Shown here piece after piece: positions 9,170 to 63,025 of a DNA stretch of 64,000 nt. A program made the position numbers and the translations under genes. Below the pieces are notes generated by a model. It worked only from the letters and a program-made list of their open reading frames with translations, did not search any database and was not told where the DNA came from. Position 1 is the first letter of the stretch. Each line of letters opens with the position of its first letter. The stretch is taken from NCBI GenBank assembly GCA_963835735.1, contig CAWIGP010000003.1, forward strand, positions 129,737 through 193,736, written 5' to 3'. Origin of the DNA: an uncultured Solirubrobacteraceae bacterium (GTDB lineage Bacteria > Actinomycetota > Thermoleophilia > Solirubrobacterales > Solirubrobacteraceae).

Positions 9170-10644
9170 GCGGCGTGAACCGCCCGAACCTGCTCCTGGT
9201 CATGGCCGACCAGCTCGCGGCGGCGTGGCTGCCGGCGGCGCGGACACCTGCGCTCGACGGGCTCGCCGCGCAGGGCACCGTGTTCGACAGCGCGTATTGC
9301 GCGTCGCCGCTGTGCGCGCCCTCGCGCGCGGCGCTGCTGACCGGGCGGCTCGCCTCGCGGGTCGGCGTGTACGACAACGCGGCCGAGCTGCCCGCGTCCG
9401 TGCCGACGATCGCGCACCGGCTGCGCGCCGAGGGCTACGCGACGTGCCTGGCCGGCAAGATGCACTTCGTCGGCCCCGACCAGCTGCACGGCTTCGAGGA
9501 GCGGCTGACGACCGACATCTACCCCGCCGACCTGGACTGGACTCCGGACTGGCGCCTCCCCGCCGGCGAGCGGCTGCCCTGGTACCACACGATGGAGAGC
9601 GTCCTGCGGCCGGGCGTCTGCACCGCGTCGATGCAGATGGACTACGACGACGAGGTCGCGTTCAGCGCCGCGCGCAAGCTGCGCGACCTCGCGCGGTCGC
9701 GGCCGCGGGAGCCGTTCTTCCTGTGCGTGTCGTTCACCCACCCGCACGACCCGTGGGAGGTGCCCGCGCGCTATTGGGACCGCTACGACCGCGCCGCGAT
9801 CGACCTGCCGGCCCCCGCTGCCGTCGCCACGGATCCGCACAGCCTGCGTCTGCGCGCGATGTACGACGCGGATGCCGTCGACCTCGACGACGAGCAGATC
9901 CGCACGGCGCGCCATGCGTATCTCGCGGCGGTCAGCTACGTCGACGAGCGCATCGGCGACGTGCTCGGCGCGCTGCGTGTCAGCGGGCTGGAGGACGACA
10001 CGGTCGTCGTGTTCACGTCGGACCACGGCGAGATGCTCGGCGAGCGCGGGCTCTGGTACAAGATGGCGTTCTTCGAGGCCTCGGTGCGCGTCCCGCTGAT
10101 CGTGCGCGCGGCGCGTCGGCTGGCGCCGGGGCGGGTCGCCGAGCCGGTGTCGCACCTGGACGTGGCGCCGACGCTGCTCGAGCTGGCGGGCGTCGCGGGC
10201 GACGCGGACCTCGACGGCGAGTCGCTGCTGCGGGGGCCGCTGCAGCGCGACGTGCTGAGCGAGTACCTCGCGGAGGGGGTGACCGCGCCCGCGGTGATGA
10301 TCCGTCGCGGCGCGCACAAGTACGTCTGGTGCGAGGGTGACCCCGAGCAGCTGTACGACCTGGCCGCGGACCCGGAGGAGCTGACCAACGTCGCGGCCGA
10401 TCCTGCCCACGCCGAGCTGTGCGCGAGCCTGCGCGCCGCGGTGGCCGAGCGCTGGGACCTGGACGGCCTGAGGCAGCGCGTGCTGGAGAGCCAGCGCGCG
10501 CGCCGGCTGGTCGCGCGCGGGCTGAGCCGCGGCGTCCGGACCGCGTGGGACTTCCAGCCGCACGTCGACGCGTCGAGGCAGTACGTCCGCACTCGCACCG
10601 ACCTGTACGAGCTGCAGCGCCGCGCGCGGCTCGAAGCAACCTGA
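9166..10644 (+). CDS. betC: choline-sulfatase
   Basis: 492-aa ORF with a sulfatase N-terminus (NLLLVMADQL) and a formylglycine motif (CAPSRAALLTGR). The C-terminal tail RWDLDGLRQRVLESQRARRLV...WDFQP...SRQYVR resembles the choline-sulfatase-specific C-terminal domain. Confidence 0.75.
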   Translation: MSGVNRPNLLLVMADQLAAAWLPAARTPALDGLAAQGTVFDSAYCASPLCAPSRAALLTGRLASRVGVYDNAAELPASVPTIAHRLRAEGYATCLAGKMHFVGPDQLHGFEERLTTDIYPADLDWTPDWRLPAGERLPWYHTMESVLRPGVCTASMQMDYDDEVAFSAARKLRDLARSRPREPFFLCVSFTHPHDPWEVPARYWDRYDRAAIDLPAPAAVATDPHSLRLRAMYDADAVDLDDEQIRTARHAYLAAVSYVDERIGDVLGALRVSGLEDDTVVVFTSDHGEMLGERGLWYKMAFFEASVRVPLIVRAARRLAPGRVAEPVSHLDVAPTLLELAGVAGDADLDGESLLRGPLQRDVLSEYLAEGVTAPAVMIRRGAHKYVWCEGDPEQLYDLAADPEELTNVAADPAHAELCASLRAAVAERWDLDGLRQRVLESQRARRLVARGLSRGVRTAWDFQPHVDASRQYVRTRTDLYELQRRARLEAT

Positions 10645-10728
10645 AGCGGGACTGTCCCCCTTTAGGGACTCGCTTCGAGCGCCTGCCTGGCTCACAGCGC
10701 ATTCCTAAAGGGGGACTGTCCCGCTTAA
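10644..10728. repeat. long inverted repeat (about 25-bp stem, ~33-nt loop) filling the betC / S58-peptidase spacer
   Basis: AAGCGGGACTGTCCCCCTTTAGGGA (10644-10668) pairs with TTCCTAAAGGGGGACTGTCCCGCTT (10702-10726). There is one T:T mismatch and one G:T pair. Confidence 0.85.
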
Positions 10729-10729
10729 G

Positions 10730-11959: not shown

Positions 11960-13775
11960 ATGACCAGGAATCGACTCACTGCCATGCTGGCGGTGGCGGC
12001 GGGCGTCATCGGGCTGCCCGCCTCGGCACACGCGAGCTATGCAGACGGGGTCCTGGACGACGATCCCCTCACCTACCTCCGACTCGACGAGACGACCGGT
12101 CGCGACGCGCTCGATGCGTCAGGAATGCACAACGATGGCGAGTATGTGGGGGGCGTCACGCTAGACGGGCCCGCTCCCTTTGCCGACGCCGTCAGGTCGG
12201 TGAAGCTGGGAACGACCGGTGCGATCACGGCGGACGTACCTAGAACGGACGCTCACGCGACTGGCGGCTCCGTCGAGCTGTGGGTGAACCCGGACCGCAT
12301 GGTGAAGAACCCGCAGGCGCCGCTCGTCGCGCACGGCAACCCGGCGACGGACGGCTGGGCGCTCGGCATCGGCGACAAGCGCAAGCTTTGGTGGAAGAGC
12401 GGCCCTACGACGGTGAAGACGAAGCTCAGCCTCGGCAGCGGGGTATGGACGGCACTCACCCTGTCGTGGGACGGATCCAAGGTCAGCTTCTACCGTAACG
12501 GCGCGGACGCCAAGATCTTCAAGGCCTCGGTGTCACCGAGCTCCAGCACCGGCGACCTGGTCGTGGGAGGCAACGGCAACGGTGGTTTCACCCGTCAGTT
12601 CTCCGGCAGGGTCGACGAGGTCGCTCTGTACCAGAAGGCGCTCAGCGTCTCCGATGTCCGCGACCACTTGGCCGGCGCGCACGTGCCGATCAACACGAAT
12701 CTGCCGTCGATCGATGGCACGGCTCAGGTCGGCGAGACTCTGACGGCGCATCCCGGCACCTGGATCGACACAGACTTGGCTGTGTACCCGCCTTCTTACC
12801 AGTGGCTGCGTTGCGACGACACGGGCGAGGCCTGCGTGGAGGAGGCCACCGGGTCGACGTACCTGCTCGACGACCAGGACAAGTGCTCGAGGTTCCAGGT
12901 AGAGGTGACGGTCACCAACTCACATCGTCAGACCGGCATCGCCCAATCGGTACGGACCGACGTCGTGACCCCATGTGACGAGCGTTCCGGCGCCGATCAA
13001 CGAGGCTCCGCCGGAGATCGAAGACGACGGGACGCCAGCTGTGGGCGAGGTGCTCACCGTCCTTGCCGGCGAGTGGCAGTTCGTCGAGCACGCGGCGGCG
13101 TATCAGTGGCAGCGTTGTGACGTCTCCGGCGCGAACTGCCTGCCGTTCACCCCCGACGGCACGGACGACGAGTATGTCTTGTCCGACATCGACAAGTGCT
13201 CGACGTTCTTCGTGGAGGAGACGGTCAGCAACGCCACCGGACCCGCCACTATGCGTTCGGCCCTTACAAGCCCTATCGCGCCGTGCGACAGCGATCCGGG
13301 CGACGGCGGCAACGGCGGCGGTACCGGTGGCGGCGGTCCCGGTGGCGGCGGCGGTACGGGTGGCGGAGGCGGCACCGGTGGTGGCGGTGGCGGCGGCAAT
13401 GGCGCCGGCACCGGCCCGGCGTCCGCGCCCGTCGTCCAGAACCCGGCCCCCGCGGGCTGCCTGAAGCTGGTCGCTGCCCGCAAGCGGCTCAAGGTCGGGC
13501 GGCTCGGCAAGCTGCGCCTCGCCGCCGCTGCGAAGAACGTCTGCGTCACCGTGCCGCTCGGCGCGTCATTCAAGGCCCGCAACGGCGTGAAGCTGCGCTC
13601 GGTCGTCTACAAGTTGGACGGCAGGAAGCTCAAGCGCGTAAAGCGAAAGGGCTTCCACGCCCGGCTCGTGCCGTCGAAGCTCGCTGCCGGCACGCATACG
13701 CTGACGGTGCGCGTGCGCCCGCGTGCCGGCAAGGCGAAGACCGTCAAGCTGCGGATCCGCACGGCCGTCGCCTGA
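11960..13775 (+). pseudogene. secreted LamG (concanavalin-A-like) domain protein with two YQW-RC repeat modules, a poly-Gly linker and a basic C-terminal domain; +1 frameshift
   Basis: ORF 11912..13120 (signal peptide MTRNRLTAMLAVAAGVIGLPASAHA, then a LamG-like segment) continues in ORF 12975..13775. The junction is about 12969-12985 (..VVTPCDE / VPAPINEAPPEIEDDG). Confidence 0.7.
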
Positions 13776-20975: not shown

Positions 20976-23597
20976 TCAGCCCGTATTGCGCATCCCGGCG
21001 GCGATGCCGGTGATCGTCGCCAGCAGCGGCTCGTGCGCCTCGGCCTGTCCGGCGCGCGCCCGCGCGAGCAGCTCGACCTGCAGGTGCGAGAGCGGGTCGA
21101 TCCACGGGTTGCGATGCGACAGGCGGCGCTGCAGCGCGGGCGAGTCGTCGAGCAGCGAAGGTGCGCCGGTGATCTCGAGCAGCCGGCCGACGACCTGGTC
21201 GTGCTCGCGCGCGACGTCGGGCCAGAACCGGTCGCGCAGCTCGGGCTCGACGAGCTGCAGGTAGCGCTCGGCGACACCGAGGTCGGTCTTGTACAGCGCC
21301 ATCTCGAGCGTCGACAGCAGGCTGCGGAAGAACGGCCAGCGCGCTGTCATCTCGCGCTGCAGCTCGAGCGATCCCTCGGTCAGCGCCGCGCCGGCGCCGT
21401 ACCACGACGGCAGCAGCAGCCGGTTCTGCGTCCACGCGAACACCCACGGGATCGCGCGCAGCGCCTCGATCCCGCCCGACGCGCGCGTGGACGGGCGCGA
21501 GCCGATGTTCAGCGACGTCAGCTCGGCGAGCGGCGTGGCCTGCTCGAAGAAGCGGGGGAAGTCGGGGTCGTCGTAAACGAGCGCGCGGTAGCGCTCGCGC
21601 GAGCGCGCCGACATCCGCTCCATCTCCGCGCGCCACGGCTCCGGAACAAGCGGCTGCTGGCGCGCCGACGCGAGCAGCACAGCGGACAGCGTCTGCTCGA
21701 GCGAGCGCACCGCCAGCTCGGGATCGCCGTAGCGGGCCGAGACCGTCTCGCCCTGCTCGGTGATCCGGATGCGTCCGCGCAGGGACGCGCGTGGCTGGGC
21801 GAGGATCGCGCGGTGCATCCGCCCGCCGCCGCGCGACGGCGAACCGCCGCGGCCGTGGAACAGCTCCAGCTCCAACCCCGCCTCGGCCGCCTGCGCCGCG
21901 AGCCGCTCCTGCGCGACGTGCAGCGCCCACTGGCTCGACACGAAGCCCGAGTCCTTCCCCGAGTCCGAGTAGCCGAGCATGATCAGCTGTCGGTCGCCGT
22001 GGGCGCGCAGCGCGTCGCGGTAGACCGGCGTGTCGTAGAGCGTCGCCATCGTCTCGGGGGCGCCCTCGAGATCCGCCAGCGTCTCGAACAGCGGCGCGAG
22101 CCGCAGCTGCGCGCCGGCGCGGCGCGTGAGCCAGAGCGCGGCGAGCACGTCGGACGGCGACTGCGTCATCGACAGCACCAGCACCGGCACCGCGCGCTTG
22201 CCGTATGCCTCGCGCGCGAGCGCGACCGTGTCGAGCACGCGCAGCAGCTCGCCGGCCTGGCCCTCCGGGCGGCGGACCAACCCGCGCCGCTGGTCGCCGA
22301 TCGCCTCCTGCAGCAGCCGCGTCCGCTCCGCTTCGCCGGCGTCGCGGTAGCCGGGGAGCAGCGTGGCGACCGCGTCGTGCACGACCGAGGCCGACTGGCG
22401 CACGTCGAGGCTCGCGACGTGGAAGCCGAAGACGTCGATCTGCAACAGCAGCCGGCGCAGGCTCGCGTGTGCGACGTGCGCGGAGCCGACGCTCTGCAGC
22501 ACGAGCCAGAGGTCGTCGCGCAGCTCATCCGGGTCGCCGTAACCTGGCTCGCGCGCCAGCGGGTTGAGCATGTTGTCGAGCCGGTGCGTGATGAAGCCCA
22601 GCTTGGTGCGCAGCGGCTCGTACTCGCGGTTGGCGCGGCGCAGCACGCGCGCCGACGGCAGCTCCAGCGCGTCGCGCTCCAGCGACGCCTCCAGGGCGGG
22701 GGAGACCGGCACGCGGCGGGAGGAATGCGAGAAGTGCTGGGCGAGCAGGTCGACGCGCTCGCGCAGCATTCGCAGCGCGGTCTCGCGGTGCAGCGCGAGC
22801 GTGCGCGCGAGCGTCTCGGCGCCGACCTCGGGGTGGCCGTCCATGTCCGAGCCGGCCCACGAGCCGAACGCCAGCTCGCGCCCGTCGACGCGGACGTCGA
22901 AGCAGCGCTCGAGCTCCTCGAGCACCTCGGGGACCGCGTCGTACAGCGTCGCCTCGAAGAAGAAGAGGTTGCGGCGGACCTCGTCCTCGACCATCGGCCG
23001 CACGCGCCGCACCTCATCGGTCTGCCACCAGATCGTCAGCGCCTCGCGCAGCTCGGAGGTGAGTGCCCGCCGGCGCGAGCGCCCGATCCGCGGGTCGTCG
23101 AGCCGGTCAAGCAGCTTGGCGACGTGGACCTGGTGGTCGAGCACCGAGCGGCGGGTGGCCTCGGTCGGGTGCGCGGTCAGGACGAGCTCGACGTGCAGGC
23201 TGCGCAGCGCGGCGGCGAGGTCGGCGCCGTCGGCGCGCAGCAGGTCGGCGGCCTCCATCAGTGACTCCCGCTGGCGCACGCCGGTCGCGTCGTAGTGGCG
23301 CCTCCTGCGCACGCGCTCGCGCTCTTCGGCGATGTTCGCGAGCTGGAGCTGGAGCGCGCACGCGCGGATGCACGGCTCGACCTCCTCCTGCGGCAGCCCG
23401 CGCACGAGCTCGCCGAGCGCGGCGCCCGCGCTCGCGTCCCCATTGCGGACGTCGGCGGCCGACTCGTGCAGCCAGCGCACGGTGCGGGCGAACCCCTCGC
23501 CGGACTGCTCGACGAGCACGTCGTGTAGGACGGAGGAGAGAAGCTCGGAGTCGCGCGCGAGCGCGTCTTGTGTTGCGGCCTCGGTGGCGACTGACAT
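20976..23597 (-). CDS. ppc: phosphoenolpyruvate carboxylase
   Basis: ORF 20976..23867, start taken at MSVATEAATQD (ATG 23597). Contains the PEPC motifs VLTAHPTE, GYSDSGKD and FHGRGGSPSRGGG, plus the C-terminal MRNTG. Confidence 0.9.
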   Translation of the reverse strand: MSVATEAATQDALARDSELLSSVLHDVLVEQSGEGFARTVRWLHESAADVRNGDASAGAALGELVRGLPQEEVEPCIRACALQLQLANIAEERERVRRRRHYDATGVRQRESLMEAADLLRADGADLAAALRSLHVELVLTAHPTEATRRSVLDHQVHVAKLLDRLDDPRIGRSRRRALTSELREALTIWWQTDEVRRVRPMVEDEVRRNLFFFEATLYDAVPEVLEELERCFDVRVDGRELAFGSWAGSDMDGHPEVGAETLARTLALHRETALRMLRERVDLLAQHFSHSSRRVPVSPALEASLERDALELPSARVLRRANREYEPLRTKLGFITHRLDNMLNPLAREPGYGDPDELRDDLWLVLQSVGSAHVAHASLRRLLLQIDVFGFHVASLDVRQSASVVHDAVATLLPGYRDAGEAERTRLLQEAIGDQRRGLVRRPEGQAGELLRVLDTVALAREAYGKRAVPVLVLSMTQSPSDVLAALWLTRRAGAQLRLAPLFETLADLEGAPETMATLYDTPVYRDALRAHGDRQLIMLGYSDSGKDSGFVSSQWALHVAQERLAAQAAEAGLELELFHGRGGSPSRGGGRMHRAILAQPRASLRGRIRITEQGETVSARYGDPELAVRSLEQTLSAVLLASARQQPLVPEPWRAEMERMSARSRERYRALVYDDPDFPRFFEQATPLAELTSLNIGSRPSTRASGGIEALRAIPWVFAWTQNRLLLPSWYGAGAALTEGSLELQREMTARWPFFRSLLSTLEMALYKTDLGVAERYLQLVEPELRDRFWPDVAREHDQVVGRLLEITGAPSLLDDSPALQRRLSHRNPWIDPLSHLQVELLARARAGQAEAHEPLLATITGIAAGMRNTG

Positions 23598-23707
23598 CGG
23601 GTGTTCGAGTGTGCCAGGTTGGTGCGCCGGCGCCCGCGGTGCTGCCGGCGTGTGTGTACTGCGGCATTGAAGGAGGGGGATCGGGTCTGGTCGCGGCTCG
23701 CGAGAGC

Positions 23708-23940
23708 GACCAAAACGTCGAGATCGCGTCACGATCGCACTGCGTCTCGACGTTGTGGTCGGATAGCAGCCAAAACGTCGAGCACCTCCCGCGATCGGCG
23801 CCCCGATCGACGTTTTGGTCGTTCCGGTCCGCAAAACGTCGAGCTCCCGGCCGGCTTGCCGGCCCACCCGACGTTATGCGGCCACCAGCCGCAAAACGTC
23901 GCGCGGCTCCGCCACGAGCCGCGCGCTCGACGTTTGCGGC
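23708..23940. repeat. four tandem ~60-nt stem-loop units with conserved AAAACGTCGAG / CTCGACGTTTT arms and variable GC-rich loops
   Basis: 5' arms lie at 23708, 23769, 23829 and 23888. 3' arms end at 23760, 23820, 23881 and 23940. Stems are 12-15 bp. Confidence 0.85.
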
Positions 23941-23964
23941 CACGCCGAACCCGCTCCCCTCACT

Positions 23965-24275
23965 GCCCGCCGTACCCCAGCGGCGGCGCCCAGCGGGCGT
24001 GCCGCGCCTACGCGAGCGGTGGCGCCGAGCGGGGCGTGCCGCGCCTACGCGAGCGGTGGCGCCGAGCGGGGCGTGCCGCGCCTACGCGAGCGGTGGCGCC
24101 GAGCGGGGCGTGCCGCGCCTACGCGAGCGGTGGCGCCGAGCGGGGCGTGCCGCGCCTACGCGAGCGGTGGCGCCGAGCGGGGCGTGCCGCGCCTACACGA
24201 GCCGGTGGCGCCCAGCGGGGCGTGCCGTGCCTATACGAGCCGGCGGCGCCCAGCCGGGCGCGCCGCGCCTACAAC
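23965..24275. repeat. 37-nt tandem repeat: 5 identical copies plus about 3 diverged 38-nt copies
   Basis: Unit CGTGCCGCGCCTACGCGAGCGGTGGCGCCGAGCGGGG starts at 23998, 24035, 24072, 24109 and 24146. Variants start at 24183, 24221 and 24259, and a degenerate copy precedes 23998. The last copy overlaps the MocR stop codon. Confidence 0.9.
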
Positions 24276-25720
24276 CCCGCGTCCCGCAACGCCGCCGCCA
24301 ACCCGGCGACCGCCGCGTCCACGCCGGCCGTCGGCACGCGCCCGTACCCGAGCACCAACCGCGTCGGGCCGCGCGGCACGAGCGCGTGCCGCCGCGCCCC
24401 GAGGTCGTCCGCCACCACCCCGTGCGCGGCGTTCGCCTTGCGCAGGCGCACCGGGTCGAGCGCGACCGGCAGCGCGAGTACGAGGTGCACTCCGGCCGCG
24501 GCACCCTCGATCCGCCCCTCCGGCACCTCGCGCGCGAGCGCGGCGACGAGCCGGTCGCGCCGCTCGGCGTACGTGCGCCGCACGCGACGCAGATGACGGT
24601 CGTGCTCGCCCGAGGCGATCAGGTGCGCCAGCGCGAGCTGGTCGAGCGCGGGCGAGCCGGAGTCGGCTGCGAGCTTCGCGGTCGCCACCGCGGGGGCGAG
24701 CGCAGCGGGGGCGAGGATCCAGCCGAGCCGCAGCGCGGGCGCGAGCGTCTTGGACGCCGTCCCGACGTACACGACGCGCGCGGGATCGAGCCCCTGCAGC
24801 GCGGCGAGCGGACGGCGGTCGTAGCGGAACTCCGCGTCGTAGTCGTCCTCGATCACGATCCGGTCGCCGTCGTGCGCCCAGGCCAGCAGTGCGTGGCGGC
24901 GCTCGGGGCCCATCACCGCGCCGGTCGGGAACTGGTGGCTGGGGGTGACGACGACCGCGTCCGCGCCGGACGCGGCGAGCGCATCCACGCGCAGCCCTTC
25001 GCCGTCGAGCGGCACCGGCGCGGTCTCGAGCCCGGCGTGCGCGGCGGCGTCCCAGTGGTCGCTCAGCGACGGGTCCTCGAGCGCGACGCGGCGGGCGCCG
25101 CGCTCCGCGAGCGCCGAGAACAGAAGCCCCACGGCCTGGCTGTAACCCGCGCACACGACGATGCCTGCGGGATCGGCGGCCGTGCCGCGCACGCGGCCGA
25201 GGTAGCCCGCGAGCGCCTCGCGCAGCGCACGGCTGCCGAAGCCGCTGCCGTAGTCGAGCTCGGCGTCGGGCGCCTCGGCCGCGGCGTGCGCGACCGCGCG
25301 CGCCCACTCGCGGCGGGGGAAGAGCGAAACGTCCGGCGTCGTCGGCGTGAAGTCGAAGCGCACGGCCGCGCGCCGTGGCGGCTCGGCGCGCACGGGCTCG
25401 GCGGCGGGAGCGGCGGCGACGACGGTGCCGGCGCCGCGGCGCGCGGCGAGCCAGCCCTCCGCGCTGAGCTGCTCGTAGGCGTCGGTGACGACGCCGCGCG
25501 AGACGCCGAGCTGCGCCGCGAGCGCCCGCGACGCGGGCAGCCGCACGCCGGTTCGCAGCCGGCCGCCGCGGATCGCGTCGCGCAGCTCGCCGGCGAGCTG
25601 CCGCCGCAGCGGCTCCGCCGCGGCGTGGTCGAGCGCGATCAGCAGGCCCGCCTCCTCGCCGCCTGCCGCCTCGTCGCCCGCGGCCGCTACGTCCCCTGCG
25701 CCCTTGTCCCGCGTTGCCAT
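24269..25720 (-). CDS. MocR-subfamily GntR regulator (wHTH fused to a PLP-dependent aminotransferase-like domain)
   Basis: 483-aa ORF with a GntR HTH (LPASRALAAQLGVSRGVVTDAYEQLSAEGWL) followed by fold-type-I aminotransferase-like sequence with a candidate PLP-lysine region (YVGTASKTLAP). Confidence 0.85.
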   Translation of the reverse strand: MATRDKGAGDVAAAGDEAAGGEEAGLLIALDHAAAEPLRRQLAGELRDAIRGGRLRTGVRLPASRALAAQLGVSRGVVTDAYEQLSAEGWLAARRGAGTVVAAAPAAEPVRAEPPRRAAVRFDFTPTTPDVSLFPRREWARAVAHAAAEAPDAELDYGSGFGSRALREALAGYLGRVRGTAADPAGIVVCAGYSQAVGLLFSALAERGARRVALEDPSLSDHWDAAAHAGLETAPVPLDGEGLRVDALAASGADAVVVTPSHQFPTGAVMGPERRHALLAWAHDGDRIVIEDDYDAEFRYDRRPLAALQGLDPARVVYVGTASKTLAPALRLGWILAPAALAPAVATAKLAADSGSPALDQLALAHLIASGEHDRHLRRVRRTYAERRDRLVAALAREVPEGRIEGAAAGVHLVLALPVALDPVRLRKANAAHGVVADDLGARRHALVPRGPTRLVLGYGRVPTAGVDAAVAGLAAALRDAGL

Positions 25721-54251: not shown

Positions 54252-54752
54252 TCACGCGAGCGGCCCTCGGGGAGTGGAGCTAGTCGGGCTCGAACCGACG
54301 ACCTTCGCGCTGCCAGCGCGACGCTCTCCCAGCTGAGCTATAGCCCCGAGCCGGTACTGCGCCGCCCAGTGTACTAAGAGCTCCTGGTTGTTTCGCGCGG
54401 GTGCGAGGCGCAGATGCATGCAGGAGCGGCCGTCGATTTCGGCGATCGGGATGAAGTAGCAATCCGCCGTCTCGGGGCACCACGCCGCGATCCCGTCCAC
54501 CTCCGTGGCCGAGTACGTGGTCCAGACGTACCCGCGCGGCGTGTGCCGGCACGTGCGCCCGCGCACGACCACCACGTCGCCTTCCCGATTCGCCCATTTG
54601 CACTGCGTCCGCAATAGCTCGTCGCGCGCCTCGAGGATCAGGTCGTACCGGCAGCCCTCCACGACCGGTCGCCACACGTTCATCCCGAGCTCGACGGCGG
54701 CCGCGGTGATCTGGGCCTCCGCGATCGCGCCCTTCTGGTTCGTCGACATCAT
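54252..54752 (-). CDS. PD-(D/E)XK endonuclease-like protein (PDDEXK_5, 'group I intron-associated' type); the ORF runs through the tRNA-Ala gene
   Basis: ORF 54252..54815, start ATG 54752 (MMSTNQKGAIAEAQITAAAVELG..CRYDLILE..RTQCKWA). The last ~33 codons (GAIAQLGERRAGSAKVVGSSPTSS..) are the in-frame translation of the tRNA, so the true C-terminus is uncertain. Confidence 0.6.
   Translation of the reverse strand: MMSTNQKGAIAEAQITAAAVELGMNVWRPVVEGCRYDLILEARDELLRTQCKWANREGDVVVVRGRTCRHTPRGYVWTTYSATEVDGIAAWCPETADCYFIPIAEIDGRSCMHLRLAPARNNQELLVHWAAQYRLGAIAQLGERRAGSAKVVGSSPTSSTPRGPLA
54275..54347 (-). tRNA. tRNA-Ala (anticodon GGC)
   Basis: The reverse complement GGGGCTATAGCTCAGCTGGGAGAGCGTCGCGCTGGCAGCGCGAAGGTCGTCGGTTCGAGCCCGACTAGCTCCA folds as a cloverleaf. 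It has the G3:U70 Ala identity pair, anticodon loop CU-GGC-AG and a TPsiC loop GGTTCGAGCC. CCA is not encoded. Confidence 0.9.
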
Positions 54753-58510: not shown

Positions 58511-61290
58511 CCGCGGCGGTCGACGTCGCCCGCCGCCATCCGCGTCACCTGATCCTGTTCGCAGCGACGGCCGGGCTACTGCTCGGCCCGGTCGCGCCGG
58601 CCGCCGCGCTGCTCGCGGTCGCGGCCGCGGCATGGCTGGCGGGCCGCCTCCCGCTCGCGCTGCTCGCCGGCGCCGCCGTGCTCGTTGGCGCGACGCTCGC
58701 GCAGGCGCGCGTGGACGCGCTGTCCGCGGGCGAGCTGCCGGCCACGATCGGCCGGGGCATCGAGACGCGCGCGATCCTGCTCGAGCCGATCCGCGTGCGC
58801 CGCAACGGCAGCGCGGTCGCTCGCGTGCGGCTGGTCGGGCGCGCCACGCTCGGCGGCGCGGCGAGCGCCGGCGGTCCGCTCGCGGCCTCCACGGCCGGCT
58901 CGTCCACGCCGTCGCCGCGCGGACCATCCGATGCCTCCGGGGCCGGCTCGTCCACGCCCTCGCCGGGCGGACCATCCGATGCCTCCGGGGCCGGCTCGCC
59001 AGCGCCGCCCGCGGCCGCCGTGGTTCGGACCGACGACCTCGCCGGCGAGGTCGCCGTGGCCCGGGCGACGGACGGGCGACTCCCGCCCGGCGTCCGCGTC
59101 GGCAGCGAACTGCGGATGCGCGGAAGCGTCGCGCCGCTCGGCGAGTTTGACGAGTACCAGCGCCGGCGGGGCGCGGGCGTCGCCGTCGAGGTGGCGTCAT
59201 GGGAGCCGACAGGCGGCGCGCGCGGCGGCCTGCCGGGCCTGCTCGACGGAGCACGCGAGCGGGCCGCACGCGGGCTCGGGACGAGGCTGGCCGAGCCCGA
59301 GGCGGCGCTGCTGCGCGGGATGGTGCTGGGCCAGGACGAGGCGATCGGGCGCGAGGTCCGCGAGGACTTCGAGCGCTCCGGCCTCGCGCATCTCCTCGCG
59401 GTATCCGGTCAGAACGTGCTGCTGCTCTGCATGTTGGTGCTCGCGGCGTGCGCGGTGCTCGATGTTCCGCTGCGTTCGCGCCTGATCGCGGCCGCGGTGC
59501 TCGTCGCTCTCTACGTGCCGCTCGCCGGCGGTGGCCCTTCGATCCAGCGGGCCGGCGTGATGGGGATCGCCGGGCTCGTCGCGGCTCTCGCCGGGCGGCC
59601 GGCATCTCGCTGGTACGCGCTCGCGCTCGCCGCCGCGGTCACCCTCGCGCTCAACCCGCTCGCAGCCGGCGAGCCCGGCTGGCAGCTGTCGTTCGCGGCG
59701 GTGGTGGGCCTGCTCGCGCTCGCTCCGCGGCTGCGCGAGGCGCTGACGCGCCGGCGGGTGCCCGTGCCGGTCGCCGACGTCGCCGCGATCACCGTGGCCG
59801 CGACGCTCGCCACGGCGCCGCTGATGGCGCTGCACTTCGAGCAGGTCTCGCTCGCCTCGCTGCCCGCCAACCTCCTCGCCGCGCCCGTGGTAGCGCCCGT
59901 GATGTGGCTGGGCATGCTCGGGATCGCGCTCGCGCAGGTGGCGCCGCCGCTCGCCGCGCCGCTCAACGTGATCTGCGCGCCGCTGCTCGGCTACCTGGAG
60001 TGGGTCGCGCACGGCGCTGCCGGCGCTCCGCTGGCCGCGGTGCCGGTCCGGCTCGGCGGCCCGACCGGGCTCGCGCTCGCTTACGGACTGCCGATCGCCG
60101 CGGCCGTCGCTTTCCTCCGGCTCCGCCGGGCATGGCCGCGCATCGCCACTCGCCGCCGGCGAGGACCGCGCGTGGCCGTCTGGCTGCCGCCCGTCGCGGC
60201 AGATCGCCGCGGCGCATCGGCGCAGCGAGCTGGCGGCGAGCCGCAATCCGCGGCGGGCGAGGCGCACGCCACCGAGGCCGGGCGGCAGCCCGGGGCGGCC
60301 GTGTCGCCGGCGGGCGAGGTGCACGCCATCGAGGGCGCGGCACCGGCAGGGGCCGGCGAGCCAAAGGTCGGAGCGGACGAGCTGCCGGCCGCGGCGGACG
60401 AGCCACACAATGGGGCGGAGCAGGTCACGGGTCGGGCCGCCCGCGCGCGATTGCACCTGGCGCTCTTGCTCGGCGTCGCCACGGTCGCGGCGGCCGTCGT
60501 CGCGGTGCAGGCGGTGCGGACGCGGCCGGCGCCGCTCGCGCCAGGGGAGCTCGTCGTCTCGTTCCTCGACGTCGGACAGGGCGACGCGGTGTTGCTGCAG
60601 CGCGACGGGACGTCGATCCTCGTGGACACCGGGCCGCCCGGCGGGCCGATCCTGCAACGGCTCTCAGAGGCGGGCGTTGACCGGCTCGACCTGCTCGTGC
60701 TGACCCACGCCGAGGCGGATCACGAGGGCATGGCGCTCGCGGTGATCGCCGCGCACCGCCCGCGCATGGTGCTCGACGGCGGTGCCGGCTGGCCGACCGC
60801 CGTGCAGCGCGGGCTGCCCGAGGCGATCGCGCGCGGCGGCGGTCGGGCGGTGGCGGGGCGCGCCGGGCAGGTGCTGCGGCTCGGCTCCGTCAAGCTGCGC
60901 GTGTTGTGGCCGCCTGCGCCGAGCCCCGGCTGGCGCCCGGACGGCAACCCGAACGATCGCGCTCTGGTCGCGCACGTCCAGGACGGCACCTTCGACCTGC
61001 TGCTGCCGGCCGACGCCGAGAGCAACGTGACCGCCGGCCTGGACCTGCCCGACGTGGAGGCGCTCAAGGTCGCCCACCACGGGAGCGTCGACGAGGGCCT
61101 GCCCGCGATGCTGGAGCGTACGTCTCCCCGCGTCGCCGCGATCGAGGTCGGCCGCAACAGCTACGGCCATCCAGCGCCCTCGACACTCGACGCGCTCCGA
61201 GTCGTACCGGAGCTTGTGCGCACCGATCGCGACGGCACCGTCCGGCTGCACGTAGCCGATGGTCGGATGCGGCTCGAGGGCGGGGCGTGA
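58507..61290 (+). CDS. comEC: DNA internalization-related competence protein ComEC/Rec2 with a C-terminal metallo-beta-lactamase domain
   Basis: 927-aa ORF with a polytopic competence domain (GLAHLLAVSGQNV) and an MBL motif (VLTHAEADHEG). Confidence 0.85.
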   Translation: MTAAVDVARRHPRHLILFAATAGLLLGPVAPAAALLAVAAAAWLAGRLPLALLAGAAVLVGATLAQARVDALSAGELPATIGRGIETRAILLEPIRVRRNGSAVARVRLVGRATLGGAASAGGPLAASTAGSSTPSPRGPSDASGAGSSTPSPGGPSDASGAGSPAPPAAAVVRTDDLAGEVAVARATDGRLPPGVRVGSELRMRGSVAPLGEFDEYQRRRGAGVAVEVASWEPTGGARGGLPGLLDGARERAARGLGTRLAEPEAALLRGMVLGQDEAIGREVREDFERSGLAHLLAVSGQNVLLLCMLVLAACAVLDVPLRSRLIAAAVLVALYVPLAGGGPSIQRAGVMGIAGLVAALAGRPASRWYALALAAAVTLALNPLAAGEPGWQLSFAAVVGLLALAPRLREALTRRRVPVPVADVAAITVAATLATAPLMALHFEQVSLASLPANLLAAPVVAPVMWLGMLGIALAQVAPPLAAPLNVICAPLLGYLEWVAHGAAGAPLAAVPVRLGGPTGLALAYGLPIAAAVAFLRLRRAWPRIATRRRRGPRVAVWLPPVAADRRGASAQRAGGEPQSAAGEAHATEAGRQPGAAVSPAGEVHAIEGAAPAGAGEPKVGADELPAAADEPHNGAEQVTGRAARARLHLALLLGVATVAAAVVAVQAVRTRPAPLAPGELVVSFLDVGQGDAVLLQRDGTSILVDTGPPGGPILQRLSEAGVDRLDLLVLTHAEADHEGMALAVIAAHRPRMVLDGGAGWPTAVQRGLPEAIARGGGRAVAGRAGQVLRLGSVKLRVLWPPAPSPGWRPDGNPNDRALVAHVQDGTFDLLLPADAESNVTAGLDLPDVEALKVAHHGSVDEGLPAMLERTSPRVAAIEVGRNSYGHPAPSTLDALRVVPELVRTDRDGTVRLHVADGRMRLEGGA

Positions 61291-61390: not shown

Positions 61391-62557
61391 GGGCGGACTC
61401 CGAGATGTGCCGACGGTTGCGGCTCATCTGGGCTCCATCTTGTGGGCACGGTAGACGATGTCTGCGGGGATCCGGCCGCGGGTGAGTCGGCCGTGGTGGA
61501 CGCGGTCGTGGTTGTAGAAGTGCAGGTAGCTGTCGAGCTCGCGGCGCAGGCCTTTCAGGCTCGGGTAGAGGTAGCGGGCAAAAGCGGGGCGCCAGCATTC
61601 GTCGAGGATCGTTTTGTGGAGCGCTTCGACGTGCCCGTTGGTCTGCGGTCGTCCGGCGTGGATGCGGGTGTGGCGGGCCTTCAGGCGTTTGGTCGTGGTG
61701 TCGAAGTCGCCGCGGAACTCGTTGGCGTTGTCGGTGAGCACGCGCTCGAGCCTCCAGCCGGCGGCCTTGAGTTCTGCCGCGACGCGCCGGGCGAGCCGTG
61801 AGGTCTGTCGCGTGGTCGGGTTGCGCTGCTTGCAGATCACCAGCTCGGCCCAGGCGTAGGAGGAGTAGATGTCGATCGCGGTCAGCTGCCAGATCGCGCC
61901 CTCGGTGCCGCGCAGGCGCCCGACGTAAAAGCAGTCGATCCCGACCAGCTCGCCCGGATGCTCGACGTCGAGGTGCTGCTCGGGAGCGGGATCGCGTGGC
62001 GGCTGATACGGGGCGGCGTAGCCGGCGATCAGCCCCAGCCGCTTGGCGCGCGTGTTCAGGCCGTGACGGCAGAGCACCTTCCAGACGCCGTTCGGGGAGA
62101 CCACGATGCCACCCCACTTCGGCCGCGCCAGCTCGGAGGCCACGCGCTTGGGTCCCAGGCCGGGATGCGCGAGCGAGAAGCTCACGATCCGCTGCTCGAC
62201 CATCTTGGGCAACGCGTTGGGCATCCGCGGCCGGCGGCGCTCACGCGGCCTGAGCATCTCCAGCCCGTGACGGTCGACCTGGCGCTTCCACGCGTAATAG
62301 GTCGAGCGATGCACCCCGAAGGTGCGGCACGCGTGCGTCACGGTCGTACGCGCGGCCAGATCAAACAGCTGCAGGCGATAGCCGAACAGCACGTCATCCT
62401 GCGTCATGCGGCTCTGCTCCATTCACTTGGCGGTGAAGGAGCCAGCCTGAGCCGCACAGCGGACGACCCCGGGCACTCTCGGGGTCGTCCCGTCTCTAGA
62501 CGATCACACTCACAAACACAAAACGAGAAAGTGTCGGGAGAACTCGGAGACCGACCA
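61391..62557 (-). mobile_element. IS481-family insertion sequence (1167 bp) flanked by a 9-bp direct repeat CTTTAGGGT
   Basis: Imperfect terminal inverted repeats: GGGCGGACTCCGAGATGTGCCGAC (61391-61414) versus the reverse complement of 62533-62557, TGGTCGGTCTCCGAGTTCTCCCGAC. Identical CTTTAGGGT lies at 61382-61390 and 62558-62566. A single transposase ORF is inside. Confidence 0.85.
61424..62422 (-). CDS. IS481 family transposase (DDE / rve integrase core)
   Basis: 332-aa ORF with an N-terminal HTH (ACRTFGVHRSTYYAWKR) and an rve core (VGIDCFYV..., LTDNANEF, RPQTNGHVEALHKT). Confidence 0.9.
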   Translation of the reverse strand: MEQSRMTQDDVLFGYRLQLFDLAARTTVTHACRTFGVHRSTYYAWKRQVDRHGLEMLRPRERRRPRMPNALPKMVEQRIVSFSLAHPGLGPKRVASELARPKWGGIVVSPNGVWKVLCRHGLNTRAKRLGLIAGYAAPYQPPRDPAPEQHLDVEHPGELVGIDCFYVGRLRGTEGAIWQLTAIDIYSSYAWAELVICKQRNPTTRQTSRLARRVAAELKAAGWRLERVLTDNANEFRGDFDTTTKRLKARHTRIHAGRPQTNGHVEALHKTILDECWRPAFARYLYPSLKGLRRELDSYLHFYNHDRVHHGRLTRGRIPADIVYRAHKMEPR

Positions 62558-63025
62558 CTTTAGGGTCGGACAGCGACCCCAAGGCGCCCCACGTCGATGC
62601 AGGGCGCCTAACCACCAATGCGGTGGTCAAGGCGCCCCGCGTGCGCCGCCCCGGCCGAGCCCGCGTCCTCAATGCCCGCAGTTCAGGCCGCCACGGCGAC
62701 ACGAGCCGACGCGAACCGCGCATGCTCAATGCCGCCGCCGTGGCGACCTGAAACTGCGGGCTTTGAGGAGGGGCCCGGATCGCGGGTGCGTCTCCGCGGA
62801 GACGCACCTGCGATCCGGCGCGGTGTGACTTCAGGCCGGACAGCGCTCCGAGTCGATGCGGGGCAGCTTTGACTCGAGTCAAAGGCGCCCCGGATAGCGG
62901 CCCCGCCACCGGGGGCGCGCTGACCACCCAAATGCGGTGGTCAAAGCGCCCCGCGTCAGCGCCGCCGCATTCGCCCCCTCTCTTCAATGCCGCTGTACCC
63001 CAGCGATCGTGGCCGCCGCCGCATC
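62558..63025. repeat. hairpin-rich non-coding spacer (REP/BIME-like) with internally duplicated modules
   Basis: At least six stem-loops. Examples: GGATCGCGGGTGCGTCTCCGCGGAGACGCACCTGCGATCC (62778-62817), CTTTGACTCGAGTCAAAG (62870-62887), GACCACC-N-GGTGGTC twice (about 62611-62632 and 62922-62944), and a ~105-nt long hairpin (62659-62767). Confidence 0.75.

Follow-up and report, generated by a model that had tools for sequence, protein, structure and literature searches.

Analysis of a 64,000-nucleotide (nt) stretch of contig CAWIGP010000003.1 from an uncultured Solirubrobacteraceae bacterium (positions 129,737 to 193,736 of the forward strand, the whole of which is referred to here as the window) indicates that an array of four hairpins between the genes for a MocR-type regulator and phosphoenolpyruvate carboxylase (ppc) is the interior of a single copy of a palindromic repeat element, non-autonomous, interspersed and specific to the Solirubrobacterales (class Thermoleophilia), a reading to which we assign a probability of about 0.75. 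It is highly likely that the array belongs to a dispersed repeat element and is not a device specific to ppc; that the element was mobilized in trans is somewhat likely, and the chances are about even that the hairpin arms are a recognition site for a protein. The core of the element occupies positions 23658-23973 on the minus strand of the window and consists, read 5' to 3' on that strand, of an inverted repeat, four hairpin units, a small terminal hairpin and a second inverted repeat.

The hairpin array and its terminal inverted repeats

The four hairpin units span positions 23707-23940, with 5' arms starting at 23712, 23772, 23833 and 23893 (a period of 60, 61 and 60 nt), and each pairs a 5' arm ..AAAACGTCGAG with a 3' arm CTCGACGTTTT.. 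within the unit. Allowing up to one mismatch, AAAACGTCGAG was detected eight times in the window against 0.47 expected, with seven of the eight matches falling inside the array and none of 100 shuffled sequences reaching eight, and the repeat finder recovered all four in-unit arm pairs. These figures bear out a preliminary description of this DNA, which had reported four stem-loops with a strict period of about 60 nt. Unit 1 (23707-23761; arms 23712-23722 and 23746-23756; inverted repeat I4) reads cgaccAAAACGTCGAG, 23 nt and CTCGACGTTgtggtcg on the plus strand, has the outer stem CGACC/GGTCG and folds with -30.8 kcal/mol (z -5.2). Unit 2 (23767-23821; arms 23772-23782 and 23806-23816; inverted repeat I12; plus strand gccAAAACGTCGAG, 25 nt, aTCGACGTTTTggtcg) folds with -25.4 kcal/mol (z -2.4). 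The outer stem is CCGC/GCGG in unit 3 (23829-23881; arms 23833-23843 and 23869-23875; inverted repeat I13; plus strand ccgcAAAACGTCGAG, 25 nt, cCGACGTTatgcgg; -36.5 kcal/mol, z -5.3) and GCCGC/GCGGC in unit 4 (23888-23940; arms 23893-23903 and 23926-23936; inverted repeat I21; plus strand gccgcAAAACGTCGcG-[..]-CTCGACGTTTgcggc; -39.8 kcal/mol, z -4.2). The outer stems are therefore of the GACC/GGTC type in units 1 and 2 and of the CCGC/GCGG type in units 3 and 4, as had been described, with unit 2 imperfect. Folded singly, each of the four units forms one long hairpin (-25 to -40 kcal/mol, z -2.4 to -5.3), and the array region as a whole folds far better than shuffled sequences on both strands. 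No Rfam match at E<=10 was found around the array; the sole match above the gathering score in the whole window is a transfer RNA gene at 54275-54347 on the minus strand.

The array is enclosed by terminal inverted repeats, which the preliminary description had overlooked together with an adjoining 37-bp tandem repeat and the absence of the array from most close relatives. The MocR-proximal repeat (23945-23973, minus strand) reads ACGGCGGGCAGTGAGGGGAGCGGGTTCGG, with an outer extension CGCTGGGGT to 23982, and the ppc-proximal repeat (23658-23685, plus strand) reads ACTGCGGCATTGAAGGAGGGGGATCGGG. Weaker inverted similarity extends outward to about 23625 and about 24005, and outer arms at 23631-23642 and 23988-23999 are complementary (inverted repeat I25). 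The small terminal hairpin, GGTCGC-N11-GCGACC, lies at 23689-23711, shares its 3' half with unit 1 and is present at the same end of the elements at loci L084, L060, L064 and L016. The terminal inverted repeats are about 30 nt long, have the consensus ACGGCGGGCATTGAGGGGAG... and are common to about 85 ends from genome and metagenome loci.

Read in the minus-strand direction of the window, the anatomy common to the family is an end (..)ACGGCGGGCATTGAGGGGAG(C/G)GG.., one to five units, often the GGTCGC..GCGACC hairpin, and a complementary end ..CTCCCCTCAATGCCCGCCGT(..). [quoted passage not shown] End-sequence variants (ACTTCGG.., ACCCCG.., ACGGCCG..) define subfamilies and are the same at both ends of one copy, which indicates that the two ends evolve together. 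Further outward the inverted similarity fades through a GGCG..CGG.GA segment, and in some subfamilies it continues through ACGTCAAC / GTTGACGT, a segment that resembles the unit arms. Most copies are too nearly palindromic to be oriented relative to the neighboring genes. The outer end of the window's element, GGGGTAC.., bears a likeness to Tn3-type ends, which was dropped as a lead because other subfamilies do not have GGGG.

Dispersal across the Solirubrobacterales and the MocR-ppc spacer

A scan of species-representative genomes with the pattern CAAAACGTCGAG-N15-35-CGACGTT, in which genome-bin loci were read as 8-kb pieces, revealed at least 20 loci in six bins of the Solirubrobacterales; the matches at these loci span 43-46 nt, and several loci have two to four of them at 60-nt spacing, while matches elsewhere were chance-like, being single, of variable span and from many phyla. 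A search by nhmmer with the window's element likewise matched these Solirubrobacterales loci only, among the matches listed. The inverted repeats with one to five units in a 60-nt period recur at these loci, and the flanking genes are unrelated, encoding CTP synthase, 4-alpha-glucanotransferase, an FtsX-type permease, UvrA, an amino-acid permease, an AMP-binding enzyme and an aldo/keto reductase. According to a rough call from open reading frames and third-position G+C content, most copies immediately follow a stop codon and have convergent or same-direction genes on either side, with a single copy set between divergent genes. On these rough gene calls the copies are distributed as are repetitive extragenic palindromic (REP) sequences and bacterial interspersed mosaic elements (BIMEs), lying outside genes, for the most part where the neighbors converge or point the same way, and in clusters whose members alternate in orientation.

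The package of inverted repeats and units is present in soil metagenomes as well. A scan of metagenomes with 18 nt of end sequence returned 72 loci, about 45 of which are real as judged by high G+C content and an extended match. The real end pairs are 105-514 bp apart and no gene lies between the ends in any of them; unpaired end matches are either chance matches in other organisms or degraded copies. With at least 20 loci in six bins and about 45 metagenome loci, the element is small, non-coding and multi-copy at unrelated sites, as MITEs are. In viral contigs the hairpin pattern gave 0 matches and a 14-mer of the inverted repeat gave 110 single matches, which are ascribed to chance because none has the extended repeat or a partner.

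Regarding the copy in the window, ppc (20976-23597, minus strand; 873 amino acids, PF00311) is the downstream gene and the MocR-type regulator gene (24269-25720, minus strand) is the upstream gene, encoding a GntR helix-turn-helix domain and an aminotransferase fold (PF00392, PF00155). These domain matches confirm the earlier placement of the array between a MocR stop and a ppc start, both on the minus strand. The spacer between the two genes is 670 nt long, and the array lies 110-340 nt 5' of the ppc start codon on the coding strand. The best matches to the window's ppc are uncultured soil sequences, 84-91% identical, and the named relatives Solirubrobacter and Baekduia are found at 64-68% identity. 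An exact search for this ppc found no recorded copy, and none of the sequencing runs compared contains the genome, the word share being 0.11 or less and every run being soil metagenome DNA.

The same spacer was compared in relatives whose ppc DNA is about 88-89% identical to that of the window (L001, L002/L003, L115 and L116). It is 19 nt long in L001, L002 and L003 (L001 5083-5103; L002 9981-10001; L003 3062-3082), from which the hairpin motif is absent, and 98 nt and 145 nt long in L116 and L115, respectively, both of which lack the array. A short CACACTCG motif directly precedes the ppc start codon in the window and in all five of these loci. An orthologous insertion, at the same site, in the same orientation and with four units, is present in L084, a contig of bin DATHJG01, where the layout is MocR stop, about 37 nt, the four-unit element, about 60 nt and the ppc start; the flanking genes of L084 and the window share 90-91% protein identity and 75-76% identity at third codon positions. 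The comparison shows that the copy between MocR and ppc was inserted into a short spacer in a restricted set of lineages and is not an ancestral ppc leader. The 19-nt gap in L001-L003 implies that the regulator gene would be co-transcribed with ppc in that lineage. The spacer of L115, the closest ppc relative (91% protein identity), contains at 150-215 a different near-perfect palindrome of about 47 nt, CCGAGTGTCGTGAATGTCTCGCGTCACGAGACATTCGCGACACTCGG, and the MocR-ppc spacer may repeatedly acquire palindromic inserts.

These results bear directly on whether the array could be a structured 5' leader, as had been proposed, and one specific to ppc, such as a riboregulator or a multi-hairpin attenuator. 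The position of the array on the coding strand shortly upstream of the start codon, its very stable fold and its retention at the orthologous position in L084 would all suit such a leader. However, conservation at the orthologous position upstream of ppc was not found across the relatives: four equally diverged relatives have no array in this spacer, three loci leaving only 19 nt for it, the same units adjoin unrelated genes elsewhere and mostly lie downstream of them, and Rfam holds no match. The preliminary description had named two observations that would speak against a function tied to this locus, namely units scattered genome-wide and absence of the array in close relatives. Both were made, in that same-arm units are scattered across many unrelated loci of related genomes and the array is missing upstream of ppc in relatives of about equal ppc divergence, so that a ppc leader is not supported and we regard it as very improbable.

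Conservation of the units and the cargo of the element

The window and L084 elements align colinearly with few gaps, and their parts have diverged to very different degrees. The arm cores are identical at 56 of 56 positions, the inverted repeats at 52 of 56 and the outer stems at 39 of 48, compared with 65 of 105 (62%) for the loops, 27 of 47 for other internal sequence and 62 of 87 for the spacer outside the element. At the rate of change seen in the loops, the chance of 56 unchanged arm positions is about 0.62^56 = 10^-12. At the MocR-ppc locus, then, arms and ends have stayed fixed against a drifting remainder, and the alignment shows that the arm cores and ends are under constraint, caused either by selection or by some form of concerted evolution. 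Among copies in one genome (L084, L060 and L064) the loops are as divergent as between the window and L084 orthologues, which indicates that the family is old.

Regarding the family as a whole, 54 units of this kind (type A) from 20 elements were aligned (alignment A1). The cores AACGTCG and CGACGTT are invariant or nearly so and are separated by 27 nt in 44 of the 54 units (81%) and by 26-29 nt in the others; from the start of one unit to the start of the next there are 59-61 nt in 32 of 34 cases. The pair adjacent to the core is A-T in 48 units and C-G in four, and G-C alternates with C-G at outer pairs 2, 4, 5 and 6, in 7-15 units per pair. Covariation was assessed over an 18-pair stem with 500 column shuffles, all of which were exceeded by every measure: 79.2% of cells are paired (74.0% in shuffles), 80 changes are double-sided (51 in shuffles) and the covariation score is 0.184 (0.112 in shuffles). 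When the partner was slid by 1-3 columns, pairing fell to 31-41%. The compensatory arm changes that had been pointed out for the four units of the window are, by these controls, real and general in the family; the margin over the shuffles is modest because all units have similar flanks. In an alternative register, pairing the 3' arm of one unit with the 5' arm of the next, a mean of 3.45 of six outer positions pair, against 3.72 within units and 3.0 at random, so that in-unit pairing is favored only modestly. An independent set of 16 metagenome units, which includes L171 (the same element as L060, with an identical flank), has the 27-nt spacing in 15 of 16 and repeats the G-C/C-G swaps.

The loops had been described as unrelated in sequence and as small hairpins in themselves. 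Their mean pairwise identity is 35%, against 30% expected from composition, and GATC is present in 30 of 54 loops, against 4.0 in shuffles, and at fixed loop positions (1, 11-12 and 22), so that they are not fully unrelated. This GATC looks like the remnant of a palindrome that was once perfect, or like an independent motif. The description as small hairpins holds for some loops only, as in-register loop pairing across the family is 30-48%, which is about random. Two neighboring units of L174 are identical and represent a recent module duplication, from which it follows that arrays grow by duplication of the 60-nt module; arrays are thereby shown to change by tandem duplication of whole 60-nt modules.

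A regular 60-nt period in which conserved palindromic parts alternate with variable parts could also be produced by an array of the CRISPR or integron sort, in which acquired spacers or cassettes come between the repeats. Near-identical direct repeats with unique spacers, cas genes or a leader, which would mark a CRISPR array, were not what was found here. The conserved parts are inverted arms and not identical direct repeats, and their unit-specific differences are common to orthologous copies; the variable parts are homologous and slowly diverging, being colinear and 62% identical between the window and L084, and are not foreign; and the arrays hold no more than five units and lie inside inverted repeats. 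The attC sites of integrons have the R''/R' consensus RYYYAAC/GTTRRRY, from which the arm ends of the units, CCAAAAC and GTTTTGG, differ. The probability of an array of this sort is negligible.

More serious is the idea of a host-domesticated REP-like function, in which selection maintains the modules at each locus for their use to the cell, as a (bidirectional) attenuator or terminator, a stabilizer of messenger RNA 3' ends, a processing site or a phased set of sites for nucleoid or topology proteins, roles of the kind proposed for REPs and BIMEs. This agrees with a dispersed repeat on the origin of the element and differs on the reason for arm conservation. It would account for arm cores that are fully identical between orthologous copies whose loops are 62% identical, for the fixed 27-nt spacing and 60-nt phasing, for the bias to gene 3' ends in convergent or same-direction contexts, and for the symmetry of A-run, G+C stem and T-run in each unit (AAAACGTCGAG...CTCGACGTTTT). 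A simple terminator rule (hairpin plus T-run) flagged one unit of the window, on the plus strand, with a T-run of 4 nt that pairs with the A-run. However, only this one of four units passes the rule, a purely structural role as terminator or stabilizer needs no invariant 7-mer, no binding protein is known for the units, and transcription can probably pass the array, given that ppc lies behind four hairpins in two lineages and 19 nt from MocR in relatives. We consider domestication possible, if rather doubtful. The terminator array of the preliminary description is weakly supported, as a possible side effect of the units, since only one of the four passes the rule and ppc lies directly downstream of the array in two lineages.

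Regarding other copies, the window holds at 62555-63003 on the minus strand a cluster of related elements that have the same inverted repeat and different hairpins, GGGGCGCTTTGACC...GGTCA.GCGCCCC (type B). The cluster is situated in a 600-nt spacer flanked by two minus-strand genes, comprises one complete copy (62753-62996) and one or two partial ones, and also contains a 22-nt perfect palindrome at 62775-62818. Most metagenome copies carry type-B cargo between the same inverted repeats and a few carry type-A units; the inverted repeats are a modular chassis with interchangeable hairpin cargo of types A and B. An IS30-like transposase gene at L132 (about 100-1816; ..LTLEEREEISRGIACGESDRAIARALGRS..) starts where a type-B hairpin breaks off. 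It was considered as the partner of the element and rejected, since it interrupts the hairpin and appears to be an insertion into the element.

The space from the MocR stop to the element is filled in the window by the 37-bp tandem repeat (23983-24272, minus strand), which Tandem Repeats Finder reports at 23964-24272 with 8.3 copies and 93% matches. Direct sequence comparison gives an identity of about 78% between the first 27 nt of its unit and the outer part of the MocR-side inverted repeat, and L084 has a single segment of about 37 nt where the window has eight. To judge by this resemblance, the eightfold repeat is an amplified copy of the outer end of the element. At L174 (2224-2370) and at L168/L159 the end region is duplicated in tandem with a 73-78-nt period, and at L120, L129 and L156 a (GGCGCGT)n run lies 5' of the inverted repeat, beside the element end. 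Together with the 37-bp repeat, these loci indicate that the outer end of the element seems prone to tandem amplification.

Several other repeats are present in the window. A 40-nt inverted repeat at 10641-10729 (83% complementary, 9 nt apart; CTGAAGCGGGACTGTCCCCCTTTAGGGA..) lies just past a gene end; its sequence is unrelated to the hairpin family and it may be another palindromic repeat or a terminator. A 48-bp tandem unit occurs 2.6 times at 58885-59007 (90% matches), and a GGC-rich repeat of 15/18 bp is located at 13299-13410.

Origin, likeness to known repeats and significance

Under the preferred reading of the array as part of a non-autonomous repeat element, the family would have spread by transposition or recombination catalyzed in trans by an enzyme encoded elsewhere, which would recognize the inverted repeats and/or the arm hairpins. 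In several subfamilies the outermost ends carry the arm-like ACGTCAAC, which makes a single module resemble two element ends in miniature. The invariant arms and fixed 27-nt spacing would constitute a sequence-specific site, and our guess is that the mobilizing enzyme or a host factor acts there on a folded hairpin or cruciform. The MocR-ppc copy would most likely be tolerated cargo inside a former MocR-ppc transcription unit, and any effect on ppc, by attenuation, transcript processing or stabilization, would be a side effect. The 19-nt gap of the relatives and the position of ppc behind four strong hairpins in two lineages suggest either that transcription passes the array or that a promoter is located in the last 60 nt or so before ppc.

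Several observations weigh against this reading. No transposase was found between the inverted repeats in about 65 copies, and tblastn of the Escherichia coli RayT against the window and all loci gave nothing better than E=0.99, although a single-copy gene would rarely fall within such pieces; nor was an autonomous element with the same inverted repeats detected in the roughly 1 Mb of DNA examined, which consists of locus pieces and not whole genomes. Candidate target-site duplications (TA, GC and 5-6-mers) were inspected at several boundaries and none was consistent, the outer boundary of the element is fuzzy, and the filled MocR-ppc spacers and the empty ones (L116, L115 and L001) are too diverged to be aligned base by base. 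G-T and A-C mismatches are about equally frequent (57 vs 60), so that no RNA strand is singled out, and the fixed loop length argues for a binding geometry on duplex DNA, whereas covariation of the outer stems argues for a hairpin. Finally, perfect conservation of the arms in situ, across a divergence in which the loops became random, is not predicted for a dead selfish insert and points to a continuing or host-level function that the preferred reading does not specify.

A bolder proposal, which we regard as unlikely, is that the modules are working recognition sites of a trans-acting protein system in Thermoleophilia and not decaying selfish DNA. A protein would then read the invariant AACGTCG stem in a hairpin or cruciform whose fixed geometry is given by the 27-nt interior, the 60-nt phase and GATC at three loop positions, and either the cell or a still-active mobilizing enzyme would keep the sites intact at each locus. 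The inverted-repeat chassis would serve as a general vehicle that delivers type-A and type-B cargos between genes.

As a non-autonomous repeat, the element is closest in architecture to the pneumococcal BOX elements and closest in behavior to REPs, BIMEs and REP doublets forming hairpins (REPINs). BOX elements of Streptococcus pneumoniae have the structure boxA-boxB(n)-boxC, make target-site duplications and have a proposed insertion sequence (IS) partner, ISSpn2 (Croucher et al., 2011; PMC3049150). Both are composite interspersed repeats in which two partly complementary end modules surround a variable tandem array of self-folding modules (one to five units per element here); both fall in a size range of about 70-640 bp, are intergenic and often co-transcribed, and change in array length by gain and loss of modules. 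The likeness is architectural only. No sequence relation between the two is expected, their hosts differ in phylum and base composition, and neither a target-site duplication nor an IS partner was found for the Solirubrobacterales element, which has a 55-nt hairpin module with an invariant 7-mer stem core in a fixed 60-nt phase and whose ends also carry a second, unrelated cargo.

REPs are 20-40 bp long, with loops of 4-5 nt and an unpaired GTAG or CGTC head; they include CGTC-tagged REPs for which no transposase has been identified and families of inverted repeats located beside genes for tyrosine transposases (Di Nocera et al., 2013; PMC3733652). The text of that report makes no mention of Actinobacteria. 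The Solirubrobacterales units resemble them in being extragenic palindromes whose stem is conserved and whose loop varies, in often forming inverted pairs and clusters, in lying for the most part where neighboring genes converge or run the same way, and in being conserved in sequence and not in structure alone; their arms contain CGTC and, as for the CGTC-tagged REPs, a transposase was not found. By contrast, the unit is 55 nt long with a 27-nt interior, CGTC lies inside the paired stem and not in an unpaired head, the units stand in fixed order inside inverted repeats, and no gene of the REP-associated tyrosine transposase (RAYT) type was seen in the window or the loci. The units themselves are therefore not REPs in the strict sense of a 20-40-bp palindrome with an unpaired head and a short loop. 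Of the three readings offered in the preliminary description, a REP/BIME-like cluster comes closest, with the correction that the units are modules of a larger element with inverted repeats at its borders. Given this enclosure and an arm sequence that is kept invariant in situ, what was found does not quite amount to a simple REP family.

Bacterial MITEs include the Correia element, Nezha and Chunjie. The Solirubrobacterales element shares with MITEs its small size, lack of coding capacity, multiple copies, terminal inverted repeats and strong base pairing, as well as insertion between genes of an operon without destroying it and internal or adjacent tandem repeats, such as the minisatellite contained in a MITE of Porphyromonas gingivalis (PMC4596501). 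It differs in that neither the target-site duplication that defines MITEs nor a matching autonomous IS was found in the DNA examined, in being G+C-rich and not A+T-rich, and in its unusually long inverted repeats (30-45 nt or more) with ill-defined outer ends. Literature searches on repeats of this type in Solirubrobacter, Thermoleophilia and Conexibacter turned up no relevant work. The element forms a new family within a known kind, that of non-autonomous MITE/BOX/REP-like repeats; it has no Rfam family and no description in the literature searched, and its unusual points are the stem core of seven nucleotides that is invariant in situ, the fixed 27/60-nt geometry, the GATC positions and the interchangeable cargo.

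Regarding ppc, the comparison removes a false lead, as the array says nothing specific about the regulation of this gene. It documents a repeat family with countable anatomy in a poorly studied and abundant soil lineage. Elements of this kind interrupt assemblies, interfere with gene calling and can change how neighboring genes are expressed, and models of the family would be useful for the annotation of Thermoleophilia. The invariant arms, set against loops that drift, offer a handle on the question raised by REP-like sequences in general, whether they are kept by the host or by their own spread.

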